64,000 nucleotides of DNA, taken from positions 85,125-149,124 of the IMG/VR virus record IMGVR_UViG_3300050120_000210. One strand, given 5' to 3'. The stretch comes from a virus. The notes under the pieces are model-generated. The model was not told the DNA's origin. It worked only from the letters and a program-made list of their open reading frames with translations, and did not search any database. Both the position numbers and the translations under genes were made by a program. This document shows, piece by piece, positions 10,201-56,893 of the stretch (position 1 is the first letter of the stretch; each line of letters begins with the position of its first letter).

Positions 10201-13200
10201 ACGGACCCGCAGGGCCTTTCGCTCACCTATAGCTTCATCTCCGGCACGTTGCCCGCTGGTCTGTCGTTCTCTGGCGGGGGCTCGGCCACCATTCAGAAGA
10301 GCAGCCCGAGCGCAACTGTTCCGGTCACGTCTTCGGATCAAACCTATAGCTTCACCGTCGAAGTCACCAACGGCTTCGTGCCGGTCCAGCGCACCTTCTC
10401 GATCACGATCCTGAAGAACCTACCGCCGGTCTGGGTTTCCCCGACTGCTGGCAGCCTCGGCACCCAAAACGAAGGCACTTCCTTCACGGTCACCCTCGAC
10501 GCAACTGACCCGGAATCGCAAGGCATCTTCTATCTGGTGTCGGCGGGTTCTCTGCCGAACGGTTTTGGCCTGAATGCCAACACCGGCGTCATCAGCGGCA
10601 CCACGGGCACGGTCTCCAACACGACCACGTTCAACTTCACCATTGATGCAGACGACGGCAAGCAAACGACTTCGCGGGCCTTCAGCTTCACCACTACGTT
10701 CTCGTCCGCTCCGGCTTGGACGACGGCTTCTGGTTCTCTGGCGAGCCAACTCGAACAGACCCCGTTCTCCGTCACTGTTGCCGCCACGGCGGCTGGACAA
10801 GGTATCCACTACACGGTCGCCAACGCCAGCATTCTGCCCACCGGCTTGACCCTTGACGCAAACACGGGCGTCATCAGCGGCACCCTGCCGCCGGTGACCA
10901 CCGACACCGTTGATTCGTTCGACTTGGTCGCCACATCGGTCGTGACAGGCAAGGCAACGACTCGCTCGTTCAGCATCACCATCATCAACGATCTGCCGCC
11001 CGTTTGGAGCACGGCCGCTGGCCTGTTCCTCGACGATTTGGCTGGAACTTCGTTCACCAAGAGCCTGCTGGCCATCGACCCGAACGGCACCACCGTTACC
11101 TACACCATCGCCAATGGTACTCTGCCGGGTTCGGTGACCTTCAACCCCAACGCGGGTGGTGGCACGGCTTCGCTCTCCGGCACTCTGCCGACCGTTGCCA
11201 ACAACACGACGTATGCGATCACGGTTGGCGCGTCTGATGGCGCCTCGCAAGTTAACCGCACCTTCTCCTTCACATCCGAACTGGATGTGCCGCCGGTGTG
11301 GTCCACGAATGCTGGCGTCCTCGCCAACGCTGCCCCGGAATTCTCGACGTTCTCGACCACCGTCACTGCGGTCGATCCGAATGGTAAGGGCGTTGTCTAT
11401 GGCCTCGCAAACAGCACGTTGCTGCCGACCGGCCTTTCGCTGCAAGCCAACAACGGTTTGATCTCCGGCACGCTCCCGGCAGTCGCCAACGCTCTGGCCA
11501 ATGATACCTACAACTTCACCGTCCGTGCTTCGGATGGCGTGATGACCGCTGACCGCAACTTCTCCATCGTGGTGAAGCCGGATGCGGCACCGGTGTGGGT
11601 CACCAACGCTGGCTCTATCGGTAGCGTTCTCGAAAGCCAAACCTTCTCTACGCACCTCGTGGCAAGCGACCCCGATGGCGATACCGTCACCTATTCGTTG
11701 ACCAACGGCACCACGATGGCGCCGGGCTTCAGCCTACTCGCCAATGGTTTCGTTTCCGGCCGCGCTGGCACCACCACGGTGGACACCAGTTATCCGTTTG
11801 ATGTGGCCGCTTCGGATGGTCACAAGAGCACGAATCGTTCGTTCACTCTGACCCTGCAATTCGACACGACGAACCTCGACGCCAACTCCGCATCCGTCAC
11901 CATGCTGATGCCGTTCGAAGGCACGCCGGGCTCTAACGCTCTGGTCGATCAGCTTGGTCACGTTATCACGGACAACGGTGCGGTCATTTCGAGCACGCAA
12001 GTTCAGTTCGGCAACACTGCGGTGTTCTTCAACGGCTCTAGCTCGTTCACGACGCCGATGCTGCCCGACTTCAACATGCTCAACGTTGGCGTCTACACCG
12101 TCGAATTCTGGCTCTTCCCGACCGAGAACTCCTCGACCGAATATCTGATTTCCGAAAACGCTCTCGGAAACGACACCAACGTGAATGCTACCTACTGGGG
12201 CATCAAGAAGTCAGGCACGTCTTATGCTCTGAATGTTGGTCCGCAAACCCTGATTAACGCCAGTAGTGGTCTCATTTCGGTCGCGGGCGGCACGGTGCTT
12301 CTCAACCAATGGCAACATATCGCCGTTTGTAAGAGCGCGGCAGGCACGAAGACCTTCCTCAACGGTGTGAACATCGGCACGGCAGCCATCAATGGCACGT
12401 CCGGTAACACGGCCACGAACCTCGTCGTTGGCCTAGGCTTCACCGGTTATATGGATGATCTTCGCATCACCAATGCAGCCCGTTACTCGGCAAACTTCAC
12501 ACCCGGCAAGGCCCCGGCTATCCCCGTGTGGGTCACCCCGGCAAACACCGTGCTGGTCACCGGCAGCGAAGGCAATTCGATCACGAACGCCGTGGCGCTC
12601 TCCTTCACCGATTCATCCGGTCTCGGTATCAAGAACTACGTCACCGTTGGCGCTCTGCCGACTGGTGTGACACTTGATACTTCCAACGGCACCGTGGTTG
12701 GTGTCATCCCGCAGGCTGTCCAAGGTGGCCAGATCACGCTCACAGCGCAAGGTAAGGATGGCAACAACAACCTGACGGCCGCGCGTAACTTCATCATCCA
12801 ATCGAACGCGCTGTCGGCCCCGAGTGACCTGCAAGTTAGTTGGCGCTTCAACAAGCAGACTTCCGCGAGCGGTTTCTTGGCCGACATTGGCAATAGCGGA
12901 TTCGGAACACCGACTGCTGTGGGCACCTCATTTTCGTATGTGGCTGCTCCGAGCCCGCATGGAACAGACACCGCGCTTCAGTTCAACGGACAAACGGCAA
13001 TGTATATGTCCGACACCACGAACCTGCGGTTCTTGGAGCATAGCAATTGGACCATTGAGATGTGGGTCTGGATGTCGGATTTCACTGCCGGTAAGAGCGT
13101 TGGAACACGTCTGCTCAGCATTGGCGATGGCGCCAATGGCGGGAATGGTATTTTCTGGTTCACCGGTGGCACCGGTGCAATCGCGGGCATCTACCAAAAC

Positions 13201-38780: not shown

Positions 38781-39305
38781 CTATTTCTTGGTGGTGATTA
38801 CCGTGGTCACAACTGCCGCCGGAGCGACAGGCGCGCTGGGAACGACAACTGTTGGTTTGACTACCGGGCACCAGATAGACTTGGTGCCGCCGTCATATGG
38901 CTTGGCGAACCCGCCATCAACCATGAGCTTTCCGTAGTCTCGGCCATCCTCAAGCGTAACCGTTCCGAGCAGGCGGCCGTATTTGTCATGCTTGGTGGTG
39001 TCGTAGTGCACAACGACCGTCGAACCCAAACGAATGACCGTCTTTGCGTAGGCGGACGCTGCTTCTCCGAGTTTCACTTCGCATAGGCTCTTGCCGGGTG
39101 GCATACGCTTTTCGGGGGTATCGATACCGTCGATCCTCACATCATCGGGATTGTAAGGCACGGGCCAACCGGCGATCACAACCTTGATGGTGTCGCCGTC
39201 GATAACCTTGATGACTTTGGCTTGGTAGTCGATTGTCGCTGCGGCGGCGGGAGCAACTCCCAATAGATTGAAAGCGGCCAGCAGGATAAGTGCATACTTT
39301 TTCAT
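38781..39305 (-). CDS. secreted thermonuclease (SNase family)
   Basis: Signal peptide; VIDGDTI, RIDGIDTPE, DKYGRLL; TAAATA 4 nt before ATG. Confidence 0.9.
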   Translation of the reverse strand: MKKYALILLAAFNLLGVAPAAAATIDYQAKVIKVIDGDTIKVVIAGWPVPYNPDDVRIDGIDTPEKRMPPGKSLCEVKLGEAASAYAKTVIRLGSTVVVHYDTTKHDKYGRLLGTVTLEDGRDYGKLMVDGGFAKPYDGGTKSIWCPVVKPTVVVPSAPVAPAAVVTTVITTKK

Positions 39306-39327
39306 CGTGTATTTAGTATGCAGTGAA

Positions 39328-39403
39328 TGGCTCCCTCGGCAGGACTCGAACCTGCGACAACTCGATTAACAATCGAAAACTCTACCAACTGAGCTACAAG
39401 GGA
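39328..39403 (-). tRNA. tRNA-Asn(GTT)
   Basis: Acceptor TCCCTTG/CGAGGGA + GCCA; loop ttGTTaa; T-loop TTCGAGT; TTGACG-N17-TAGACA promoter. Confidence 0.95.
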
Positions 39404-39441
39404 TCACCTGTCCCCATGTCTATCGGGGACAGTCTTTTTCG

Positions 39442-39543
39442 TCAAGCAATATGCGCGATGAACGATCCGGCCAGCAAAAACGGAATGGCCAAGAAGAACA
39501 GCGAGCTAAGCTTGTCGAGTTTGGTTGCAAATGTGGTTTTCAT
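39442..39543 (-). CDS. 33-aa single-TM peptide (not in ORF track)
   Basis: MKTTFATKLDKLSSLFFLAIPFLLAGSFIAHIA; AAGGA RBS; TAAATA at 39578-39583. Confidence 0.5.
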   Translation of the reverse strand: MKTTFATKLDKLSSLFFLAIPFLLAGSFIAHIA

Positions 39544-39618
39544 AACTAGGTTCCTTTCAATTTCTTGATAATGAACCTATTTATGTTGCGCTGCAATATC
39601 TATCTGAACAGTGTTTAC

Positions 39619-40140
39619 TTAGGCCCAATTCTCGAACTTCACGAGATCATCATAGGGCAAATTATAGCAATCCGCCGAGACCTTCCAACCGTTCGATGGA
39701 TCAACGTCACCGACCTTCAGGAACTTTGCCCGATCCTTGTAGGTCTCTTTCTGAATGATGCCGATGATATATCCACGCGTGTAGTCTCCGGTCTCCTTGA
39801 CGCGGTAGAGCGACACGAACACATAGAAGTCGGCGCGTTGAGCCGTGTTGAAGTTCGCGACCGATGCTTCGTAGCCAGCGCGCGGCGCCACGGTACGATC
39901 CTTGGTCTTCACCTCAAACGATGTGCCTTCGAAAGTGATGTCATGCTGATAGGTGTTGTGGGACTCCGAACCACCCCAAGCAGCGAGTACGATTTCCTCG
40001 CCCAAGAAGCCTGCAAGATTACCGGAGCCCCTGCGGATCGAGTTACGCAGTTCACCCATCTCCTGAGCCTTCTCTGAGGCTCTATCGACCATCTCCTGAG
40101 TGATATCGATCTCGATGAAACCTTCGCGGGTGATGTTCAT
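39619..40140 (-). CDS. PD-(D/E)xK nuclease-like protein
   Basis: GFLGE...HD.......EVKT...D.YVF pattern. Confidence 0.65.
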   Translation of the reverse strand: MNITREGFIEIDITQEMVDRASEKAQEMGELRNSIRRGSGNLAGFLGEEIVLAAWGGSESHNTYQHDITFEGTSFEVKTKDRTVAPRAGYEASVANFNTAQRADFYVFVSLYRVKETGDYTRGYIIGIIQKETYKDRAKFLKVGDVDPSNGWKVSADCYNLPYDDLVKFENWA

Positions 40141-40520
40141 CAGATTGAGTGCCGCATTTGGACTGCCTGATCGCGCGCCGCATTCATTACGACTTGCGCG
40201 ATGGGCGGTAGGTTGGTCGCCTTGGCGAAGTTGAACGTCAGGCCATCGGCCGCAGCGAGAAGCGTGAAAAACGGTGCTTCTCCGTCCGGGGTGAACACCG
40301 TGACATTGACTTCAAACGGTCTGCCACCGGCCCGGTAGCGGAACCACTGGCCGTTGCAGTCGTAGGTGGCCTCTCGCGTGCCCTTGTTGAACGAAAGTTG
40401 GGCGGCCATGACCAAGGTCTCACCAAGTAGTCTCGGTTCGGTTCGACCATAATGGAGTGCGGGAGGTGGCTTGTCGTCGAGATGATCTTCAATTTCGACT
40501 TGGGCAGCGGCAGTCAACAT
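40140..40520 (-). CDS. hypothetical protein
   Basis: TGATG coupling to the downstream gene. Confidence 0.55.
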   Translation of the reverse strand: MLTAAAQVEIEDHLDDKPPPALHYGRTEPRLLGETLVMAAQLSFNKGTREATYDCNGQWFRYRAGGRPFEVNVTVFTPDGEAPFFTLLAAADGLTFNFAKATNLPPIAQVVMNAARDQAVQMRHSI

Positions 40521-40593
40521 GGGCCATCACTTGTCAGGAATGAACCTTCAAAGTAGCCCGTGCACGGACCTATCTGCAATATTTTCGTAAACC

Positions 40594-40636
40594 AAAATAG
40601 GCCCACCGGGTGGGCACATGGCGTGACCGGTGGGCC
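40594..40636 (-). terminator. Rho-independent terminator
   Basis: ggcccaccgg...ccggtgggcc followed by tatttt on the - strand. Confidence 0.7.
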
Positions 40637-40639
40637 GTA

Positions 40640-40740
40640 ATGGCTTCGGACGGGCTGCCATCAACCGTTCAGGAGCCCGGCGCCGAACATCCTGACTCAG
40701 GGGTATGTCCTAAAAGGGCAGTGACCGTTCTGATCCTTAC
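40640..40740 (-). ncRNA. possible small rod-shaped RNA
   Basis: Nested inverted repeats with a central bubble, bracketed by two - strand terminators. Confidence 0.35.
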
Positions 40741-40750
40741 CCTAGACACG

Positions 40751-40781
40751 AAAAAGCCGCCCCGGATTTGCCGGAGCGGCT
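40751..40781 (-). terminator. terminator of the GOLLD-like transcript
   Basis: agccgctccgg-caaat-ccggggcggct-tttt. Confidence 0.8.
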
Positions 40782-40832
40782 GGGAGTCCCGCGCTAGTCG
40801 GGATATGAGAACTGCCGGAGCAGTTTGATGTT

Positions 40833-41980
40833 AAAGCCGTGAGACTACAGGCTTAATGACTGGCCTTCCGAGATTATAGCCCACTTGCGATGGACCTTCC
40901 CCGATCATCCACCCTCTGCTCTTGCGAGTCAAAAGGTAACCAGCCGATGCCGCCTTTTCCCTATCGAAGCCCGAAGGCATAGGCGAGTGGCTTATCTCGC
41001 GTCGTAGTGTGTCCTCGGCGGTTCCTTCTCCGTTGACCATCGCTGGCCATTCAGGGTTGCAGCCCCTACGAAAACCTTCCCACCAACGTCCGGTTGCCTT
41101 GCGAGCTTCCGACCGTCTCGGTTCCAAATCGCCACCCGAAGATGACGACCCAGCCGAGAATTAGGCATCTTGTTACACACTACCGGGGCAGAACTTTGCG
41201 TTTTTCTAAGACAGTTGGAATTGAACCAACGACCTCATCCTATGCAGGGATGCGCTCTACCAGAGTGAGCTATATCGCAATCCACCAAGACGTGCTGCCC
41301 CAGTTGCTTCACCAGCCTTTCAGCCGACAAAATACAACACGCCTCATCCCTTTCATCCGGCTAAGACTACTCAGGTGTCCTTTTGGACCTAGTGACGTTT
41401 TCACGCCCCAAGACCCTGAAGACTGCCACCCGCCCTAAGCTGCGAAGCCTCGGACCTGATGACTACCCGTTAACTCTCGACCATGGACGTGCTTTGCATG
41501 TCTCGGTGCAGGACGCAAACCCCGCTTGGACCGACCTGCTTTCCCCACCGGCGAACCGACAAGGGCATCGAGCCTAGTCCTATCCCCTCTCAGGGACCAA
41601 AACGCACATCGTCCGATCTATCTCCTATCCCGAAGGTAGAAGACCCTCTTTAGGAGGGTAGTTCGGGCCTCTTTGGATGGACTACAGTTGCCTGTAGGGA
41701 CGGTATGTGGACCTTCCGCCCTTATCCCACCTCGCGGCGGGTTATCCGATTATACTGGCGCCAAATCGCCAGTTCTCAACACCCGTCCTATCGGTCGAAC
41801 GAACTACCCCGCACATCGACCGAAGCCGACGTGCAAAGTGATCCAGTAGGATCGAAGAGACGTTCCGCACGCCGCCCGAAGGCGACTTAACCCGACCGAA
41901 GCCGAGAGGCACGGAGTGCCGAAACTTGTGTGCTAGGAGCGGGTTTTCCCGCTCTCAGCGAAATTTTTTGGTCTGTGACC
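40833..41980 (-). ncRNA. GOLLD-like giant ornate RNA, about 1.15 kb
   Basis: No credible ORF; dense GNRA/UUCG hairpins on the - strand; segments GUGUUGUAUU...GAAAGG...GGGGCAGCAC, GCAAAGUUCUGCC and 3' AAGCCUGUAGUCUCACGGCUUU resemble GOLLD as I recall it; own promoter and terminator. Confidence 0.8.
41206..41279 (-). tRNA. degenerate tRNA-like element (anticodon position GCA) embedded in the GOLLD-like RNA
   Basis: Intact D arm (GCTC..GAGC), anticodon arm catcc-ctGCAta-ggatg, T arm gttgg-TTCAATT-ccaac; weak acceptor, no CCA, U37. Confidence 0.7.
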
Positions 41981-41988
41981 GAAACACC

Positions 41989-42017
41989 AACCTAACAACT
42001 CGCCATTTTCTGGTCAA
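41989..42017 (-). promoter_or_regulatory. sigma70-type promoter for the GOLLD-like RNA
   Basis: TTGACC-N17-TAGGTT. Confidence 0.75.
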
Positions 42018-42481
42018 CTACTTTTTACGATCTCTCGTAATTATTTTCGTTCACCAGATGGTGGAAGCCGTTGGGAGAGCGCCGCTGCCCCAGCCGTGAT
42101 TTGGAAAGTAGCGACCCCTTTCGGAAGACGCAATATCCTTTTTCGCAATTTCGTGACGAAGCCTGTGGATAACTCGCAAACGAAACAACGAGGGGTCGTC
42201 AAGCCGTTTGGCCCGGCATTCTCGTTGAGCCAGCAGCCTCGTATCTTGATGACTGAGAGCAAACTCCCGCCTGTGGGAATGGCGTCCCCGGCACGTTCCC
42301 GAGGCCCTCCACTCAAAACCGCACAAGGCTCCAAAGCCCGCCGGTCCACAGCCCGTGTCATACCACGGCGCCACTCGTCCAGTTCTGATTAGCAGACAAC
42401 AAGTTACCAGTCAATCTGCGCGAAAACTCCAATTTTGAGTTTCGATAAATACTCGAAGCCTAATTGGATCATCTCCCTTCA

Positions 42482-45400
42482 ATGACACTGCGTCTCACAA
42501 CTCTGAATCTATCAGGATCGCTCACAGTGGGTAGGGATACCAATCCCGCTATCATGTGGGTTGCTCCGATGAACAAGGTTCTGGGTGCATTCAACGAAGG
42601 CGACGAGATCGAAACCGTCTTCAAGGCGACCGGCAAGAACCTCACCGCGCCCATCACCTATGAGCTTCACGTTGGTTCGCTGCCGGACGGCATCAGCTTT
42701 GATGAGACCAGCGGTTTGATGAGCGGTATTTTCACCGATCAAGTTGGCCTGTTCGATATCATCATTCGCGCGCAGAGTGGCGGAACGTTCCTCGATCATC
42801 CGTTCCGGCTCATCACCGGGCCGCATCCGTCGCCTGTCTGGATCACGCCTTCAGAGATTCTTGATTTTGGAAACGTAAACGAAACGGCGAACACCGCAGT
42901 TGAAGCCGTCGATCCCTATGAGCTTCCGGTTCAATATTCTGTGGTCGGCGGGCAGCTTCCGAGCGGGGTGTTCTTGGACCCCAACACCGGCGCCATCACT
43001 GGCACCTACCCGAACCTCGACGATGACCGCGAATACGATTTCACGTTGGCCGCGTCGAACGGCGACACCGCAGTGTTCCGTGACTTCAGCATCTATGTCG
43101 CAGCCGTCCCGCCTGAGTTCGCTTCGATTTGGGTCACTCCGGCCGGTTCGATTGGCTCTGGTTACGAACTCTCGTTCTTTGAGAGCACCGTGCTGGCCAT
43201 CGACCCGCGAGACGATCACATCACTTACGTGCGTGTGGCTGGCAACATTCCGCCGGGTCTGCAACTGGACGCGAACACCGGCCTGATGTCTGGCACGCTC
43301 GACGCGCAGCCGGACGACACCGAGTTCAAGATGATCTTGGGGGCGCGAAACAGCGTCTACACCACGAAGCGTCTGTTCCTCATCACCGTCAAACACGACG
43401 TTGCCCCGAGCTTCGAGATTCCGGGCGGGGACACGGGTCATCCGTTCCCCATCGGTCAGTTCATCGAAGGTTTCTCGATGAGATTCACACCGAACGTCAC
43501 GTCGAATCCTGAACTCCCGATCAGCTACACGGCGGTCGGTCTGCCTGATAACGTTGGCATCGACGTGAACAACGGCATGGTTTCGTCCGATTCCTTGCCG
43601 CTGGTGCCAGAGCCGCGCAACAGCGACGAGACCGTTCAGTTCTCGATCACCGCATCCGATGGTTTGAAGTCAGCTTCGCATCAATTCGTTTTCGTGATCC
43701 TGCGCGACTTGCCGCCGGTCTGGCAGCCGGTCGGCAACAGCCTCGGCCAAGATTTCGGAGGCACGGTGTTTGCTTCTCCGTTGCCGCTCGCCGTTGATGT
43801 TTACGCCCGTCCCGTTGTCTACACGCTATCCGATCAAACTCCGCTTCCCGATGGTCTGACGTTCGACCCGGATCAAGGCGAAATCAGCGGCAACCTTCCG
43901 CCCACACCCGATGACGATATCGACATTCCGCTGACGATCACTGCGGTCAGCGGTGTCAATCCGGCGATCAAGGATTGGACGATTACGGCATGGCACAACA
44001 TCCCGGCTATCTGGGATACTGACGCTGGCTCGCTCGGCATCATCATCGAGAACACCAACTCATCGGTAAGCGTCGCCGCGCACGATTTCCACGGTGAGCA
44101 GGCCGTGACCTACGCGATGGCGAACGCGACAGTTCTGCCGCCGGGTCTCACGTTGATCGCGAACTCAGGCGCCATCGTCGGCACGACGCAGAGCATTTCC
44201 GATCCCAATCTGGAAACGACGGTCTTCACCATCGAAGCGTCGTTCAACGGTCTGCTGCCGACCACTCGCGATTTCTCGATCAGCGTGCAAAAGAACTATC
44301 CGCCCGTGTGGGACACCCCGGCCGGAAGCCTGCTCTCTGTCCTCGCCCAGCAAGATTTCGGCGTTTCCGTCGTCGGTCACGATCCGAACGGCTCGCCGTT
44401 GATCTATGCGATTATCGACACGAACATTCCTGATATTCCCGACATCGTCACGACGCCCACTGACGTGACGGGTCGATTCCCGCCGACAACCGTCGATCAA
44501 ACATTTTTCTACAAAGTTTCGATCAGCGATGGCGTGAACCTGCCTATCGAACGAGACTTCACGCTGACTTCGTTGGCCAACTTGCCGCCGGTTTGGGTGA
44601 CGAACGCGGGTACTATTCTCGACGCATTCGAACATACTGACGTGAGCATTCAACTCGATGCGTTCGACCCAGAGGGTGCGGATATCGAGTTCTACATCAC
44701 GCCCAACACCAACGATATCTACAAAGAAGGCAACACTGTCTACCTTACGATGTCAAACACCGGCCTCGTCACCGGCACCCTTCCGCACGTCGATTCAGAC
44801 ACGACCATTTCGTTCACCGCAATTGCGTGGGATCAAACCGGCGAGCGCGGTAACAATCGCTATCTGGCAACGAGCCAGAGTTTCGACATCGTCGTGCGGT
44901 TCAACACCCCGCCGACGTGGAATACGGCCGCCGATATTGAAGGTCTTGAACGCACTGCGTTCTCCTTGACGTTCAGCGCCAGCGGCGCGGGTAATCTTCC
45001 GCAAATCGTTTACACGCTGAAGAGTGGATCGTTCCCCACAGGTCTGACCATGGATGCCAACGGCGTGCTGAGTGGTATCCTTCCGGCCGTAAGCTCGGAC
45101 CAAGATTTCATCTTCACGATGACCGCCGACAACGGCATCAAGCAGTCCGACCGAACCTTCACATTCACGGTGGTTGAGAATGTGCCCCCGGTTTGGGACA
45201 CCCCCGCCGGAGAGTTCATCAGTCATCTTGGACAGATTCCGTTCAGCGCCCAAATCATCGGCCACGATGACAACTCGCCGCTTGGTAACCCGGTGACGTA
45301 TACCCTCACCGATGTGGGTAATGTGCCTGTCACCGTCTCCTTCACCGCCGCCAATCCGATCACCGCCAACTCGAACATCACCGGCGTGATGAGCGGGCAT

Positions 45401-48400
45401 TTGCCGCTCGTGGAGAACTCGGACGCGCTTTACACCTTCACCGCCGCACTGAACGATGGTCTTGCCCCGCCGGTCAGCCGCACGTTCACAATTCGCAATC
45501 TGGCCGACCGTGATCCCCTGTGGGGAACACCCGCTGGCTCGATTGGCGTCGGCACTGAAAACAAGCCCTTCACGTTCACGCTTGGTGCAACGGACCCCGA
45601 AGCAAACACGGTTGTGTATGCTCTCGCCAATGGCACCAATTTGCCGGATGGACTTACGCTTTCGAGCAGCGGCTTCATCAGCGGCACTATGCCGCCCGCA
45701 GCATCCGATACCGATTATCCGTTCTCGGTTTTCGCGAGTGATGGAACACACGAATCGTTCCGCGATTTCACCGTCACGGTGCAGCATGATTTCCCGCCTG
45801 TCTGGGTTACTCCCGCAGGTAGCTTGGGCACGATCCTTGGTGGTTTCAGTTCAAGTTTCCGCATCGAAGCGACCGATCAAAACCCGCACGACACGGTCAC
45901 TTACAGCGTGGTCAGTGGCTCATTGCCGCCCGGCCTTGCGCTACTAGACACCGGTTTCATCAACGGCGCCATGGACACTATCCCTGCCGATGAAGACTAT
46001 AACTTCACGGCACAAGCGACAGACGGCACGAACCCGATCACACGGGCGTTCGCGATCTCTGGTGTGCGAAACCAGCCTCCGGTGTTTGTGCCGGGTGGCA
46101 GCCGCCTTGCTCGTCAAAAAGAACAGACGAACTTCACCGCGTTCATCGACGTGTTCGATCCTGACGGTGGTGATATTGCCGAACGCAAAGTCACCGGCTT
46201 GCCTGATGGCCTGACCTTCAACACCAGCACATTCAACATCGAAGGTGTGCTGCCTGCGGTCACCGAAGACAAAACGTATTCGTTCGATTATCTGGCGAAT
46301 GACGGCATTGTCGCGAACACGCAGACTTACACCATCGACGTGCTGTTTAGCTCTCCACCGGTCTTCCAAGGGTCTTCTACGCTCAATCGAGCGGTTGAGG
46401 GTCAAATCTACGCTGGCGACCAGATCACGGCCCTCTCAAATGGGTCCACGGTATTCTATTCGGTGTCTGGTGGCGAAATGCCGGACGGCATCAACTTGGC
46501 GTCCAACGGACAGGTTACCGGCGTGGCGCCGGGTATAGACACCGACACCAACTTCATCTTTGACGTGACCGCATCGACTGGCATCAAGTCCAGCGTTCGC
46601 ACCTACACGCTATCGGTCATCAAAAACCAGCCGCCTGTGTGGGACAGCAATGCAACGATCTCGCCGTTCGCGCAAGAAGGCCAGCACATCTCCTACTCGT
46701 TGGTCGCTCACGACATCAACGGGCAGAACCTCACTTACACCTTCCAGAGCGGTGCGATCCCTTCCGGTTGGATTTACAACGCTACCAGCAATGGCGTGAC
46801 CATTTCGGGGACCGGTCAAGACCTGACCTCTCTGGCCAACGACGCGGTCTATACCTTCACGATTGGCGCGTCGAACGGCTTCATCCGTACTGATCGTCTG
46901 TTTACGATTGTCGTGCATTACAATTCGCCGCCGATTTGGGGTGGTAATTCCGTCGTCGCGAACGTGGTCGAACAGACTGCGGTGGTGACCAGCGTGCACG
47001 CCACCGATCCCGAAGGCAACGCGGTGACTTACGCGGCCAACACCGCGACCTTTGGTTTCCCGTCGTGGCTGACGCTCAATGCGAACAGCGGGCAACTGAG
47101 CGGCACCGTGCCGCCGGTGCTCTCCAATTCGTCTGTGCCGTTTACGATTGCAGCGTCGGACGGCAATCGTTCGGCCAATCGCGACTTCTCGATCAACATC
47201 ATCCACAACGTCTCGAAGGTCGATCCCTTCGCAAATGCCGTGTCGCTCATCATGCACATGGAAAACTTCAACGACTTCGCGACGCTTCCTCCGCGCACAT
47301 TCTCGGTGACTTCTCCGGCCGCGTTGTCTTCCGCGCAGTTCCTCTTCGGGAGCAAGAGCCTGTTCGCCAATGGCGGCGCCATCACTACCCCATCTACGAC
47401 GGACACGTTGCTGGCGAACTCTGAATGGACTGTGGAGTTCTGGGCTTTCCCGACTTCCACGGGAACACAGCGCGTGTTGAACAGCAACGGACCTACCAAT
47501 TTCTGGAACGTGAACATCGCTTCTGGAAATTGGGTGTTCAACGCAACGAATAGCGGCGGGACGATCATCGGTGGTGGGCTCACTCTTGGCGCCATCGTCT
47601 TGAATCAGTGGCAGCACGTCGCGATCACCCGAGGCACGGATGGTGTCATTCGTGGGTTCGTCAATGGTGTCGTCGCTGGGGCCACGATCTCTGGCGCCGT
47701 CAGCAGCAGCGGCGGTAGCGGCTTGTTCTCGATTGGCGGCGATAGCAATGACAGTGTGTTCTCGACCGTCTTCATGGACGAGGTTCGTATCACGCAGAAG
47801 CAACGCTACACCGCGACCTTCACGCCCGTCACAAACCCGTTCCCGAATCCGCCTCTGTGGTTGACCGCCAACGCAACACTGATCGCTAGCGGCCCGGAAA
47901 ACAGTGTCGTGACAGCCCCAACCCCGGTGGTTGCTTACGACAACGACAACACTGGCTCAATGTCGTCATATACGATCACTTCGACAACGCCATTCTCCTA
48001 TGGCGTTGCGGGGAACACCGGCGTCTTGAACGGTTTCTTCCCGACGCTAGTGACTGACGCGAACTTCCCGATTGTGACTGTGGCCCGTGATGGCAACGGC
48101 AACTGGACCGCACCGCGCACTTTCTTCGCCAAGTCCAATGCCGCCACCGCCGCCAACATGGTCATGTCGTGGCGCTTCAACAAAGACATGACTTCGAGCG
48201 ACTTCTCGCTATCGACTGGCAACGCGGTTGTTGGACAACCGGGCATCAGCGGAGGCACGGCGACTTATGCTCAGGCGCCCGCTCCGCATGGCACTGAAAC
48301 AGCCATGTGGACAGGGAACACCGGCACCGGGCTCTCGTGGGATACAGGTGTTGGTCATTTCAACTTCCTGTCCGGCTCGTTCACGCTTGAAATGTGGGTC

Positions 48401-48841
48401 TATATGGCTGGCGGTTATCCGCAAAATGTGGGCGGCGGAAACCGGGCGCTATTCATCATCACGCCGTCAGCCTTCAACAGCAATTTCCGACTGTTCCGAT
48501 ATGAGTCGTCGCCATCTCCGACCGGAAACATGGCTATGACCTTCATGGACATCAACCGACCGGCCGGGTGCCCAACGGGTCAGGATTTGGTGCCAAATGC
48601 ATGGCAGCACGTCGCGTTCACCAGAAACGCAACCACCAGCACGAACACGCTTTGGTTGAATGGTGTTGCCGGGCCGAGCACAACGACATCAAGTCCCGCA
48701 ATCGGGACATTCGATAACTGCAACCTGCTGATAAACCCGGCGGCGTCCACAGCTTATGTGAACGTCTTCTATCACTCGATCATTTTCTGGAACGTGCTGA
48801 AATACACGAGCACGTTCACCCCGGTCTGGCCGGGCTACTAA
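42482..48841 (+). CDS. second giant Ig-repeat + LamG fibre protein, about 2120 aa, paralog of 7252..18651
   Basis: About 16 He_PIG-like repeats, LamG, Ig, SWRFNK..APxPHGT LamG-like module; TAAATA at 42446. Confidence 0.85.
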   Translation: MTLRLTTLNLSGSLTVGRDTNPAIMWVAPMNKVLGAFNEGDEIETVFKATGKNLTAPITYELHVGSLPDGISFDETSGLMSGIFTDQVGLFDIIIRAQSGGTFLDHPFRLITGPHPSPVWITPSEILDFGNVNETANTAVEAVDPYELPVQYSVVGGQLPSGVFLDPNTGAITGTYPNLDDDREYDFTLAASNGDTAVFRDFSIYVAAVPPEFASIWVTPAGSIGSGYELSFFESTVLAIDPRDDHITYVRVAGNIPPGLQLDANTGLMSGTLDAQPDDTEFKMILGARNSVYTTKRLFLITVKHDVAPSFEIPGGDTGHPFPIGQFIEGFSMRFTPNVTSNPELPISYTAVGLPDNVGIDVNNGMVSSDSLPLVPEPRNSDETVQFSITASDGLKSASHQFVFVILRDLPPVWQPVGNSLGQDFGGTVFASPLPLAVDVYARPVVYTLSDQTPLPDGLTFDPDQGEISGNLPPTPDDDIDIPLTITAVSGVNPAIKDWTITAWHNIPAIWDTDAGSLGIIIENTNSSVSVAAHDFHGEQAVTYAMANATVLPPGLTLIANSGAIVGTTQSISDPNLETTVFTIEASFNGLLPTTRDFSISVQKNYPPVWDTPAGSLLSVLAQQDFGVSVVGHDPNGSPLIYAIIDTNIPDIPDIVTTPTDVTGRFPPTTVDQTFFYKVSISDGVNLPIERDFTLTSLANLPPVWVTNAGTILDAFEHTDVSIQLDAFDPEGADIEFYITPNTNDIYKEGNTVYLTMSNTGLVTGTLPHVDSDTTISFTAIAWDQTGERGNNRYLATSQSFDIVVRFNTPPTWNTAADIEGLERTAFSLTFSASGAGNLPQIVYTLKSGSFPTGLTMDANGVLSGILPAVSSDQDFIFTMTADNGIKQSDRTFTFTVVENVPPVWDTPAGEFISHLGQIPFSAQIIGHDDNSPLGNPVTYTLTDVGNVPVTVSFTAANPITANSNITGVMSGHLPLVENSDALYTFTAALNDGLAPPVSRTFTIRNLADRDPLWGTPAGSIGVGTENKPFTFTLGATDPEANTVVYALANGTNLPDGLTLSSSGFISGTMPPAASDTDYPFSVFASDGTHESFRDFTVTVQHDFPPVWVTPAGSLGTILGGFSSSFRIEATDQNPHDTVTYSVVSGSLPPGLALLDTGFINGAMDTIPADEDYNFTAQATDGTNPITRAFAISGVRNQPPVFVPGGSRLARQKEQTNFTAFIDVFDPDGGDIAERKVTGLPDGLTFNTSTFNIEGVLPAVTEDKTYSFDYLANDGIVANTQTYTIDVLFSSPPVFQGSSTLNRAVEGQIYAGDQITALSNGSTVFYSVSGGEMPDGINLASNGQVTGVAPGIDTDTNFIFDVTASTGIKSSVRTYTLSVIKNQPPVWDSNATISPFAQEGQHISYSLVAHDINGQNLTYTFQSGAIPSGWIYNATSNGVTISGTGQDLTSLANDAVYTFTIGASNGFIRTDRLFTIVVHYNSPPIWGGNSVVANVVEQTAVVTSVHATDPEGNAVTYAANTATFGFPSWLTLNANSGQLSGTVPPVLSNSSVPFTIAASDGNRSANRDFSINIIHNVSKVDPFANAVSLIMHMENFNDFATLPPRTFSVTSPAALSSAQFLFGSKSLFANGGAITTPSTTDTLLANSEWTVEFWAFPTSTGTQRVLNSNGPTNFWNVNIASGNWVFNATNSGGTIIGGGLTLGAIVLNQWQHVAITRGTDGVIRGFVNGVVAGATISGAVSSSGGSGLFSIGGDSNDSVFSTVFMDEVRITQKQRYTATFTPVTNPFPNPPLWLTANATLIASGPENSVVTAPTPVVAYDNDNTGSMSSYTITSTTPFSYGVAGNTGVLNGFFPTLVTDANFPIVTVARDGNGNWTAPRTFFAKSNAATAANMVMSWRFNKDMTSSDFSLSTGNAVVGQPGISGGTATYAQAPAPHGTETAMWTGNTGTGLSWDTGVGHFNFLSGSFTLEMWVYMAGGYPQNVGGGNRALFIITPSAFNSNFRLFRYESSPSPTGNMAMTFMDINRPAGCPTGQDLVPNAWQHVAFTRNATTSTNTLWLNGVAGPSTTTSSPAIGTFDNCNLLINPAASTAYVNVFYHSIIFWNVLKYTSTFTPVWPGY

Positions 48842-52618: not shown

Positions 52619-53035
52619 TCAGCCTCCGATAATTTCAAGGGCGAACGAATTGGGTTCGTTTACCAGATTGAGAATGTTCAGCCAATAGGAACCCGGCAGA
52701 ACTCCGATATTGATGCCCTCCGTCGCCGGGGCATCGGACAGCAAATCATAGACCACGACGATGCGCTTTTGCATCGCCGTGATGTTGAAGTTCGCATCGG
52801 CAGCCGGTGAGTCGATCACCGGGTTGCCGCCCTGTTGATTGCTGATCCATCCGCGCATGGAAAAGTCCTGCGGGCGGTGATCCGGGTCGGCGATCAGTTG
52901 GTTCATGGTCAGCACGATGTGACCACCGCTCGCGACGGTGAACGGGATCACGCCGAGTTGGCCGGACGGGATCGTGTCACGCACTGGGTCACCACCCGGC
53001 GTCGGAAGTTCGAAGGCGATCACTGTGTAGAGCAT
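52619..53035 (-). CDS. hypothetical beta-rich protein
   Basis: GAGG RBS, 138 aa. Confidence 0.6.
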   Translation of the reverse strand: MLYTVIAFELPTPGGDPVRDTIPSGQLGVIPFTVASGGHIVLTMNQLIADPDHRPQDFSMRGWISNQQGGNPVIDSPAADANFNITAMQKRIVVVYDLLSDAPATEGINIGVLPGSYWLNILNLVNEPNSFALEIIGG

Positions 53036-53625
53036 AGGGCCGCCTCTTCGTTCATGAACGCCACCACGTCGAACTCATCGAGCGACGGCGCCTCGTAGCT
53101 TCCGAGCATGTCTTGCACGACTTGGCGCGGGATCGTCTTACCCGTGGCCACGCCGCGCGCAAACAGGCGTTGATGCAGAATGGCCAGCGGCAGTTCGAAC
53201 ACGAGGGCGATGCGGACATAGTGCTTCGGCACCTGAGACATCCACCGATTGCGCGACTTCACGCGCATGTTGGTGCGGTCCACGATGATGTCCTTACGCT
53301 CGGCGACCGCCGTGCGAAGTTGTCCACCCATCACGCTTTCCAGCGCCTTCATGTCGATCCCGGCCGCATAGACTTCAGAGTAGGTCTTGCCTTCGGCTTG
53401 GCCCTTGGCTTCGATCTGATCGTCGCTGCTCAGCACAACGACATCCCGCGTGGTTTCGTCGAGGTGCTGCTTGATCCAAGTGCTCTTGCCCGTGCCCGGA
53501 GCCCCAACGGGGATAATGAGATTCGGACAGCGATCCATCACCCGTCCAATCGAAATCAGACGGTGTTCGATGACCGCACGTTCGCGCTCCGAAAGCGCCC
53601 CGATGATTTGTTCCACCGACTTCAC
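53020..53625 (-). CDS. P-loop kinase (AAA_33, polynucleotide-kinase-like)
   Basis: GAPGTGKST, SSD, VDRTN....R, R...R lid, P...E.FD. Confidence 0.8.
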   Translation of the reverse strand: MKSVEQIIGALSERERAVIEHRLISIGRVMDRCPNLIIPVGAPGTGKSTWIKQHLDETTRDVVVLSSDDQIEAKGQAEGKTYSEVYAAGIDMKALESVMGGQLRTAVAERKDIIVDRTNMRVKSRNRWMSQVPKHYVRIALVFELPLAILHQRLFARGVATGKTIPRQVVQDMLGSYEAPSLDEFDVVAFMNEEAALCSTQ

Positions 53626-55735: not shown

Positions 55736-56893
55736 ATGGACCTGACCACGATCATCACCCCCGAACTGGCCCGCCTGCGCGGCGCCTTTGTCGCGGCTGG
55801 GTTTGATCTGCGTCTGGTCGGTGGTGTGGTTCGCGATCTGCTGCGCGACATCGACCCCAAAGATATCGACCTGTGCACGGACGCCAACCCCGACGAGCAG
55901 ATCGCGATCTACAAAGCCGGTGGCTTCAGCTACCACGAAACGGGTCTGCAACACGGCACCCTGACCGTGGTTCTGGATCACGAGCCCTACGAGATCACGA
56001 GCCTGCGAACCGAAAGCGACCACGATGGTCGCCATGCCGTCGTGGATTATACCCGCGATTGGCTGGCCGATCTGGGTCGCCGGGACCTGACCTTCAACGC
56101 CATGTCCCTGACATTCGATGGCGAACTGTTCGACCCGTTCGGCGGCGTCAAAGACCTACACAACGGCATCGTTCGCTTTGTCGGCAATCCCGATGATCGA
56201 ATGCAGGAAGACTATCTGCGTATCCTGCGTTGGCTGCGGTTCCATGGGCGGATCGCTCCGAACAGTCCGCTGGATAAAGCCACGGTCGAAGCGGCCATGC
56301 GGAACGCCAAAGGTCTGATCGGTATCTCCCGTGAACGAGTTTGGATGGAAATGTCCAAGATCGTCGTGGGGCGGGCGGCGCCCGCTCTGGTGGACTCCAT
56401 GTATGACATGGAACTGGCCGGGCCGATGGGACTGCCTGCGGGTCACGTTGAGCGAATGCTGGACATTCAGGGCGTCACTGCCAATCCAGTCACCGTCATG
56501 GCCGCACTGGTCATGGTGGACGATCCCGGCATCGACGCACACACCGTTTCCAAGCTGGCTACGGACTGGAAGTGGAGTGCGGCCGAGCGCGACCTGATCG
56601 TGTTTCTGGCCAAGAACTTCGATGTCAACGGTTCAGACTACATGTGGCTGCTGGCCCACGACGGCTACCCGCGCGAGTGGGTTGTTGAACTGGCCCGGCT
56701 GGGTGGATCAAAGGTCGTCGGCGATGGTCTGATGACCATGGACATCCCTGTGTTCCCGGTCGCCGGACAAGACCTGATCGACGCAGGTATGGCGCCGGGC
56801 AAGGAAATGGGTGTGGCTCTGAAGAACATGAAAGTTCGGTGGGCCACCAGCCGTTACACCCTGACCAAGGACGATCTGCTGGCCAATGGGTAA
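55736..56893 (+). CDS. cca: class II tRNA nucleotidyltransferase (CCA-adding enzyme)
   Basis: LVGGVVRD...DIDL, G..HGT, RRDLTFNAM, EDYLRILR, ISRER. Confidence 0.9.
   Translation: MDLTTIITPELARLRGAFVAAGFDLRLVGGVVRDLLRDIDPKDIDLCTDANPDEQIAIYKAGGFSYHETGLQHGTLTVVLDHEPYEITSLRTESDHDGRHAVVDYTRDWLADLGRRDLTFNAMSLTFDGELFDPFGGVKDLHNGIVRFVGNPDDRMQEDYLRILRWLRFHGRIAPNSPLDKATVEAAMRNAKGLIGISRERVWMEMSKIVVGRAAPALVDSMYDMELAGPMGLPAGHVERMLDIQGVTANPVTVMAALVMVDDPGIDAHTVSKLATDWKWSAAERDLIVFLAKNFDVNGSDYMWLLAHDGYPREWVVELARLGGSKVVGDGLMTMDIPVFPVAGQDLIDAGMAPGKEMGVALKNMKVRWATSRYTLTKDDLLANG

Follow-up and report, generated by a model that had tools for sequence, protein, structure and literature searches.

Introduction

GOLLD RNAs are among the largest structured RNAs of bacteria and phages, and they form hollow cages made only of RNA. 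The present work concerns a domain shaped like a transfer RNA (tRNA) inside one such RNA, encoded on the minus strand of a 64,000-nt stretch of viral DNA (positions 85,125 to 149,124 of the uncultured virus record IMGVR_UViG_3300050120_000210). We refer to the whole stretch as the window, and positions are those of the window unless a relative is named. The closest described systems are GOLLD RNAs themselves. A 14-mer GOLLD cage has been solved, with an unresolved variable linker in its interior, and phage tRNAs are sometimes present in that linker (Kretsch et al. 2025, PMC12286853). The same paper draws “covalently linked tRNAs” in the cage and identifies kissing loops as the main glue of GOLLD cages; the solved cages assemble without an insert. 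A 2026 review describes a mycobacterial GOLLD RNA with a tRNA-Phe in J13/15, facing inward, and proposes “inhibited storage” of the tRNA (PMC12990946). The 10–14-mer cage with an inner linker is known only for the env-38 and S. agalactiae GOLLD RNAs (PMC12286853, PMC12990946). Behra et al. predicted a pseudo-tRNA in the GOLLD RNA of M. aubagnense, for which northern blots gave no separate transcript (PMC6582537); that paper cites Weinberg 2009 for GOLLD RNAs with a tRNA in the linker.

The domain was first pointed out in a sequence-only reading of the window. The idea is less novel than that reading suggests, since linker tRNAs, their position in the cage interior and a pseudo-tRNA have all been published (PMC12286853, PMC12990946, PMC6582537). 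A tRNA-like insert in the GOLLD linker is already published in kind, and the comparative result reported here sharpens a known picture. In the literature that we searched, in which Weinberg 2009 and Morgado 2020 are represented second-hand, we did not find the family-wide picture in which the acceptor is reduced to four pairs, the triplet is free and GOLLD supplies the helix that closes the domain, nor did we find a published link between GOLLD and Caulobacter phages.

The element in the window is not an ordinary tRNA gene but a part of the GOLLD RNA that has the shape of a tRNA and is under selection. Comparison of homologous sequences shows that neither the end needed for charging nor the identity needed for decoding has been preserved. 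We consider it likely, with good confidence, that the domain is a structural tRNA mimic that is retained in the RNA and is not chargeable.

The GOLLD RNA and Its Transcript

Under permissive filters, the Rfam model of GOLLD, RF02032, matches positions 40835–41345 of the minus strand over its full length (model positions 1–416 of 416, 143.4 bits, E 3.5e-39). The sequence-only reading had named the RNA GOLLD, and the match confirms the name with a score slightly below the Rfam cut-off of 150. Because the score is under this curated cut-off, the default Rfam scan listed tRNAs only. The matched segment is the conserved 3′ domain. According to the Rfam alignment, its first hairpin occupies 41287–41345 and is built of an outer stem, GAGGCGU/ACGUCUU, a GUUGU/GCAAC stem and an inner hairpin. 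In an alignment of 63 homologous modules, to which the pairing frequencies given below also refer, the outer stem is 98.4% paired and six of its seven pairs covary. The window is part of a 149-kb record with an estimated completeness of 26%; the record is therefore a fragment from a very large phage.

Of 20 public sequencing runs that hold part of the stretch, 17 are recorded as RNA libraries (soil, litter, biocrust and freshwater). Contigs of four soil metatranscriptomes were placed on 40600–42200. They are confined to approximately 40841–41913, and there is zero contig cover at 40600–40815 and at 41950–42200 in these four runs. Cover that is restricted to GOLLD, with both flanks empty, points to an RNA that is discrete and well expressed and speaks against carried-over DNA. 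The extent of the transcript is given here as 40841–41913 (minus strand) from this cover, the contigs not fixing the exact ends.

An 883-nt RNA contig from run X2 (identity above 99%, depth 80.8) spans 41031–41913 and includes the whole insert. A second contig, of 607 nt, comes from a relative with 32 differences and also bridges the insert. Since these contigs connect the element with both flanks, the insert stays within the RNA: it is retained, joined to the sequence on either side. Inside the insert, the 607-nt relative differs from the window at four sites, two of which are in loops. The U6·G67 pair becomes U6–A67, one U–A pair of the T stem becomes U·G, and the anticodon loop is unchanged, so that pairing is kept. 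The RNA contigs also include a natural variant with a 2-nt deletion at 41205.

An intrinsic-terminator-like hairpin, recognized by a consensus scan only, lies at 40755–40781 (minus strand), about 55–60 nt past the 3′ end of the Rfam match at 40835. It is the sole hairpin of this kind found, and the RNA-contig cover ends before it, at about 40841. The 3′ end of the abundant GOLLD RNA may perhaps be trimmed.

Contig breaks within 41175–41205 in two of the runs were considered as candidate processing sites and were rejected, since the broken contigs lead into other variants, a pattern typical of assembly branching. In run X6, the contigs in this interval have the conserved 30-nt linker motif in common and differ from one another beyond it, with another T-arm-like stretch in one of them. 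It seems that these soils express several GOLLD variants at once, distinguished by their inserts.

The tRNA-Shaped Domain in the Window

The domain belongs to the variable linker, a segment that the GOLLD alignment leaves unaligned; it follows the first 3′-domain hairpin and precedes the next pseudoknot strand. ARAGORN calls a tRNA-Cys(GCA) at 41205–41280, and the Rfam tRNA model (RF00005, model positions 1–71) matches 41206–41279 on the minus strand (52 bits, cut-off 29, E 2e-9). Both programs thus bear out the cloverleaf with intact D, anticodon and T arms that had been described from the sequence. The D arm (41254–41270) has the stem GCUC/GAGC and the elbow residues G18 and G19, and the T arm (41214–41230) has the stem GUUGG/CCAAC and the loop UUCAAUU; both are supported by covariation. 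The anticodon arm (41236–41252) consists of the stem CAUCC/GGAUG and the loop CUGCAUA (41247–41241), in which the triplet GCA occupies 41245–41243.

The departures from an ordinary tRNA that the sequence-only reading had listed, namely a broken acceptor, the lack of CCA and the loop CUGCAUA with U37, are likewise all seen on the minus strand. The 5′ strand of the acceptor stub, GAUA (41273–41276), pairs with UGUC (41213–41210) to form pairs 4–69 to 7–66, as follows: A7–U66, U6·G67, A5–U68 and G4–C69. Beyond them come a C3×U70 mismatch, G2·U71 and U1–A72. With four contiguous pairs and then the mismatch, a seven-pair acceptor is absent. In the minimum-energy fold the acceptor stem does not form at all, and the closing stem is UUGCG/CGCAA. 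Position 73 is a G (41206), and CCA is not encoded. The stub is separated from this closing stem, on the 3′ side, by an A-rich bulge or trailer, UUAGAAAAA (41201–41209).

The main identity element of tRNA-Cys is U73. The window combines G73 with the GCA triplet and does not match the textbook Cys identity set of U73 and GCA. The loop is not canonical either (U33 with a purine at 37), as U33 is present and position 37 (41242) is U; by comparison, 676 of 694 free tRNAs of related loci have a purine at position 37. Folding-energy z-scores of the region were not significant, which is usual for tRNA-sized RNAs and is evidence neither way.

GOLLD Helices That Enclose the Domain

Two helices of the minus strand surround the cloverleaf. 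The inner one, helix Y, joins UUGCG (41276–41280), a strand that overlaps acceptor positions 1–4, with CGCAA (41196–41200), which lies within the conserved linker motif AAAAACGCAAAG (41205–41194). This stem had been proposed from the sequence, and it is borne out by its place as the closing stem of the energy fold and by a double compensatory swap. Relatives with GCGAA on the 3′ side have U(U)CGC on the 5′ side in eight of nine cases, against 0 of 87 relatives with (N)GCAA. Helix Y is found in only about 30% of the homologues. The AAAA-N-GCAAAG motif is nearly invariant, also in a sample chosen without reference to it.

The outer helix, helix X, pairs GGGGCAG (41295–41301) with CUGCCCC (41185–41191). 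It is supported by covariation: pairing between alignment columns 63–69 and 204–211 stands at 96.8%, and six of the seven pairs have changed on both sides. Helix X is a pseudoknot and not a simple stem around the insert, because its 5′ strand is supplied by the internal loop of the first hairpin. The sequence-only reading had drawn a longer helix, GGGGCAGCAC (41301–41292) with GUUCUGCCCC (41194–41185). Only its seven-pair core, GGGGCAG/CUGCCCC, is supported. The extra CAC/GUU pairs compete with the GAGGCGU/ACGUCUU outer stem of the first hairpin.

Conservation of the Domain in Related Phages

The same arrangement is present in the phiCbK-like Caulobacter phages, whose GOLLD RNAs score 165–170 bits, and in the Erythrobacter phage vB_EliS-L02; more than 90 uncultured phage contigs use the same insertion site. 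The GOLLD matches above the Rfam cut-off are at 1510–1996 in phiCbK (L002), 1510–1996 in Magneto (L003) and 1544–2030 in BL57 (L005). Records of the phiCbK-like phages annotate the insert as an ordinary tRNA-Gly(TCC) or tRNA-Lys(CTT) and leave GOLLD unannotated.

Relatives were collected in two ways. A pattern scan of viral contigs, filtered by profile, yielded 65 distinct modules. A scan by the upstream hairpin alone, which is blind to the linker, yielded 97 new loci, and 39 of these have a tRNA-like insert, as do 11 of the 11 re-found loci identifiable among the matches listed. The linker length in this second sample peaks sharply at 90–102 nt. Judging from the sequences sampled, about half of this GOLLD branch would carry the insert. 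Altogether, 96 inserts were parsed, which fall into 61 clusters.

All three arms of the cloverleaf are conserved as structures. The D stem is 96.8% paired, with four of four pairs covarying, the anticodon stem is 97.5% paired, with five of five pairs covarying, and the T stem is 98.4% paired; across the three stems, changes on both sides occur at 12 of 14 pairs. For the 42-pair structure that includes the GOLLD helices, none of 500 shuffles reaches the observed values, and slid controls are 34–48% paired. On a tree of 96 modules, G18 has no changes and G19 has four, and T-loop positions 54, 55, 56 and 58 have zero or one change each. The sequence-only reading had named neutral decay of the arms in relatives as an outcome that would refute it. 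Instead, the D, anticodon and T arms covary, and the element is therefore under selection.

The acceptor is conserved only in its inner half. Pairs 4–69 to 7–66 are formed in 87–98% of the homologues, versus about 50% when partners are shuffled. Pairs 1–72, 2–71 and 3–70 are formed in 46–54%, versus 39–48% in the shuffled set, that is, at chance level. By ARAGORN, the acceptor has all seven pairs in three of 54 embedded elements, compared with 600 of 694 free tRNAs on the contigs that hold them. No conserved cleavage-site context was found at positions 1 and 73 in the homologue alignment and the tree. Embedded and free tRNAs are not distinguished by their bit scores in the Rfam tRNA model. The proposal that elbow and anticodon shape are kept while features needed for aminoacylation are lost extends, then, from the window to the family, with covarying arms and acceptor pairs 1–3 at chance.

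In the anticodon loop, the frame is conserved and the triplet is not. Position 33 is U in 95% of clusters (4 changes on the tree), position 37 is A in 77% (16 changes) and position 38 is A in 85% (12 changes). Positions 34, 35 and 36 are variable, with 31, 24 and 25 changes, respectively. Trailer sites, which vary in length and sequence and are taken as unconstrained, have 23–32 changes per site. The triplet evolves as fast as these sites (24–31 versus 23–32 changes) and appears to be unconstrained. The 61 clusters have more than 22 different triplets, A34 types and three stop-codon readers among them. Loops of a length other than 7 nt are found in eight of the 61 clusters, and canonical loops in 42 of 54 embedded elements. 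A free tRNA with the same anticodon is found nearby in eight of 24 tRNA-rich loci, these loci being fragments.

The phiCbK group illustrates this freedom at close range. Over an aligned module of about 170 nt, phiCbK, Magneto and BL57 are identical except for the anticodon loop, which is CGUCCUA, CUCUUAA and CAUCCUA, respectively. Over 1400 nt, phiCbK and Magneto differ at about 17 sites, and five of these are contiguous in the anticodon loop. A fixed intramolecular partner for the loop was considered and rejected, since the loop change between these two phages comes without a complementary change elsewhere in the RNA. Loop evolution faster than neutral as a general trend was also rejected. 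Overall, loop and body diverge at similar rates, and the triplet behaves as unconstrained sites do; an excess of loop divergence is confined to nearly identical pairs, mostly of the phiCbK group.

Proposed Role and Rival Explanations

We propose that the domain began as a tRNA that was captured by the variable linker, which separates the first 3′-domain hairpin from the pseudoknot strand that comes next. The parts that make the L-shape would have been kept, i.e., the D/T elbow, the 5-bp anticodon stem and a loop that is mostly U33...A37 A38 (U37 in the window). The functions of a tRNA would have been lost, leaving a 4-bp acceptor stub, no discriminator or CCA end, and a triplet free to change. 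Both acceptor strands would continue into GOLLD, here via UUGCG/CGCAA and the pseudoknot GGGGCAG/CUGCCCC, and the domain would stay covalently within the mature GOLLD RNA. By analogy with other GOLLD structures, each 10–14-mer cage may display 10–14 look-alikes inward. Its most likely role there would be that of a docking site or bait for a reader of the elbow and anticodon arm, for which a host tRNA-targeting nuclease, a tRNA-modifying or tRNA-repair enzyme, and the ribosome are candidates. Taken by itself, a role as bait or docking site for such a reader is a tentative suggestion, to which we give rather less than even weight. The combined statement, that a retained, non-chargeable tRNA mimic serves as docking or bait site, we hold to be somewhat favored on balance. 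Of the three functions put forward in the sequence-only reading, namely a decoy for anticodon nucleases or tRNA-sensing defenses, a ribosome-binding handle and an RNase P/Z processing signal, the present data do not single out one.

Several points weigh against this proposal. The phage encodes a nucleotidyltransferase with a PolyA_pol head (55736–56893, plus strand), of the family that includes the CCA-adding enzymes, and therefore the missing encoded CCA is not decisive alone. The acceptor of the window could form six of seven pairs, with two wobbles and one mismatch. The bridging contigs prove that the uncut form exists, not its share of the molecules. The position in the cage interior is taken from other GOLLD structures, in which the linker itself is unresolved, and the bait idea would follow from which features are conserved. 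Finally, in two distant homologues, L014 (about 12285–12484) and L081 (about 10729–10934), the insert at this linker site has a complete acceptor of 7 bp with ACCA after it. These two inserts resemble real tRNAs, unlike the other inserts examined, and some GOLLD inserts may be released. They also suggest how the domain arose.

The latter homologues are among the points that speak for a stored pro-tRNA, a functional tRNA that is inactive in the cage and, on opening of the cage, would be released by RNase P and RNase Z, provided with CCA and charged. “Inhibited storage” has been put forward for the mycobacterial GOLLD RNA with tRNA-Phe (PMC12990946), 42 of 54 embedded loops are canonical, the phage encodes the CCA-adding-type nucleotidyltransferase, and in 16 of 24 tRNA-rich loci no free-standing tRNA nearby shares the embedded “anticodon”. 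Storage is nevertheless improbable in our judgment. Acceptor pairs 1–3 are at chance across the family, and the anticodon is unconstrained and often nonsensical, with A34, with loops of 6, 8 or 9 nt, and with G33 in phiCbK and A33 in BL57. In the window, U37 and G73 do not suit a tRNA-Cys, for which U73 is the textbook identity. The pseudo-tRNA of M. aubagnense has no separate transcript (PMC6582537), and, in the window, a GOLLD helix closes the acceptor end and RNA contigs run through it, which argues against efficient excision or processing. The 883-nt and 607-nt contigs that bridge the element also count against a processing signal of the MALAT1 type, which would recruit RNase P and RNase Z to split GOLLD into a 5′ and a 3′ piece with a tRNA-like by-product. 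The conserved elbow and the stack of T stem on acceptor are what these enzymes read, the insert lies exactly where the divergent 5′ region gives way to the conserved 3′ domain, and contigs of two runs break at 41175–41205, though the loose ends look like assembly branching. We give this explanation little credence, as the stub has 4 bp, the pairing of the 5′ leader with the trailer in helix Y disfavors RNase P, and positions 1 and 73 have no conserved cleavage-site context.

An architectural role would assign the L-shape to filling or bracing the cage, and in one version the anticodon loops of neighboring protomers would kiss, through UGCA in the window and UUAA in many relatives. Four-nucleotide palindromes are found in the loops of 30 of 61 clusters versus 21.7 expected (7 of 1000 shuffles reach 30) and, for comparison, in 166 of 694 free tRNAs. 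The UGCA of the window is kept in the natural variant, and kissing loops are the main glue of the GOLLD cages (PMC12286853). However, the enrichment is modest and is driven by U35-U36-A37-A38, for which an ancestry of Lys/Asn type is also an explanation, and the loops of phiCbK and BL57 are not self-complementary. About half of the related GOLLD RNAs lack the insert, the solved cages assemble without one (PMC12286853), and the retention of a full tRNA elbow would go unexplained; a structural brick is, in our view, unlikely. Least probable is a neutral relic, i.e., a tRNA gene of the surrounding array that became caught in the linker, serves no function there and is decaying. GOLLD genes do lie in tRNA arrays (781 tRNA calls in 124 loci), acceptor and anticodon identity are degraded, and the linker is the variable part of GOLLD. 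Neutral decay is contradicted by compensatory changes, which are found in each of the three arms although the sequences are very divergent, by elbow residues that are near-invariant, and by an insert at the same site from Caulobacter phages to the giant phages of peat and soil.

Within the docking or bait proposal, a particular version is a decoy particle, in which the 10–14 tethered look-alikes that would line the lumen absorb a host anticodon nuclease or another reader of tRNA shape. The loop would then turn over fast in phiCbK, Magneto and BL57 because it tracks local host nucleases. An anticodon-nuclease decoy is possible; it would fit the tRNA-care genes of this phage, namely the CCA-adding-type enzyme (55736–56893) and an AAA_33 kinase (53020–53625), and the current work on phage tRNAs and tRNA-targeting defense (PMC10264068, PMC11555353). 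We regard the decoy particle as a long shot. If true, it would supply a counter-defense function for GOLLD, unexplained since 2009.

Genomic Neighborhood and Further Relatives

A tRNA-Asn gene lies 1.8 kb from GOLLD. Apart from the domain, just two tRNAs are called in the whole 149-kb record, one for Val and one for Asn. A staphylococcal-nuclease-like protein (38781–39305, minus strand) adjoins the tRNA-Asn gene. On the other side, about 550 nt past the 5′ end of GOLLD and on the opposite strand, starts the gene of a 2125-aa protein (42464–48841, plus strand) with eleven He_PIG Ig-like repeats and two Laminin_G_3 domains, probably a fiber or surface protein. An AAA_33 kinase is encoded at 53020–53625 (minus strand).

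In the phiCbK-like phages, a permuted transfer-messenger RNA (tmRNA; RF04321, about 70 bits) is encoded on the strand opposite to GOLLD, some 500 nt upstream, and adjoins tRNA-Met genes. Its coordinates on the minus strand are 683–1001 in L002, 682–1001 in L003 and 648–966 in L005. Directly downstream of GOLLD in these phages, there is an 89-nt “tRNA-Cys(GCA)” call with 34–35 bits in Rfam (2227–2315 in L002 and L003, 2259–2347 in L005), which is unusually long for a tRNA-Cys.

Close relatives of the GOLLD RNA in the window are few. A GC-rich pattern written for them found only two viral and three metagenome contigs, each with a different loop. In two GC-rich relatives, L226 and L229, A replaces G18 in the D loop and G replaces U55 in the T loop, which may be a compensated change in the tertiary pair of the elbow. 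Another six loci (L135, L141, L171, L172, L180 and L206) have a linker of fixed length, about 108 nt, without a tRNA-like signal, and this group may have a different conserved insert at the same site.

Comparison with Known Systems

In a large phage branch, the linker of the GOLLD cage holds a selected, probably non-chargeable, tRNA-shaped domain and not a spare tRNA gene. This narrows the role of the cage, in that a reader of tRNA shape probably meets the RNA at the linker. The phiCbK-like Caulobacter phages offer a system accessible in the laboratory, with the same architecture and natural loop variants. The annotation of the domain as tRNA-Gly or tRNA-Lys is a mis-annotation, and it affects counts of phage tRNA genes.

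The domain shares with the published GOLLD RNAs that have a tRNA in linker J13/15 the RNA family, the insertion site and the setting of phages and tRNA arrays. The published inserts have been treated as tRNAs that are “sometimes present”, possibly as cargo or as stored tRNA. In contrast, the inserts of the present branch have a 4-bp acceptor stub, a free triplet and a closing helix supplied by GOLLD, and they occur in about half of the 97-locus sample.

Mimicry of tRNA within or at the end of a long RNA, read by tRNA enzymes, is also known from the mascRNA-type signals of MALAT1 and MEN-beta and from the tRNA-like structures at the 3′ ends of plant viruses. In those elements the acceptor stem is complete, and cleavage or aminoacylation takes place at a free end. 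The GOLLD domain differs from them in being internal, in having a 4-bp stub and in being bridged by RNA contigs.

A further probable likeness is to the bacterial Y RNAs of the YrlA type (PMC4201824, bioRxiv 10.1101/312249). There, too, a tRNA-shaped module with a D/T elbow forms part of a longer non-coding RNA; a helix closes the acceptor end of the module, which is therefore not chargeable and presumably serves as a protein-binding mimic. The likeness is one of concept only, as the YrlA model (RF02553) had zero matches in 39000–43500 of the window at E up to 1. The GOLLD module differs from YrlA in its host RNA, in that a Ro60 context was not seen, and in its predicted display in multiple copies by the cage.

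Free-standing phage tRNAs with altered anticodon loops that escape host anticodon nucleases (PMC10264068, PMC11555353) resemble the domain in being tRNA-shaped, in having unusual loop positions and in residing in genomes with genes of the tRNA-repair type, and both belong to the field of tRNA-targeting defense. However, those tRNAs are working, chargeable molecules that replace cleaved host tRNAs. The GOLLD domain is probably not chargeable as it stands, and therefore it could act only as a decoy or as a binding site.

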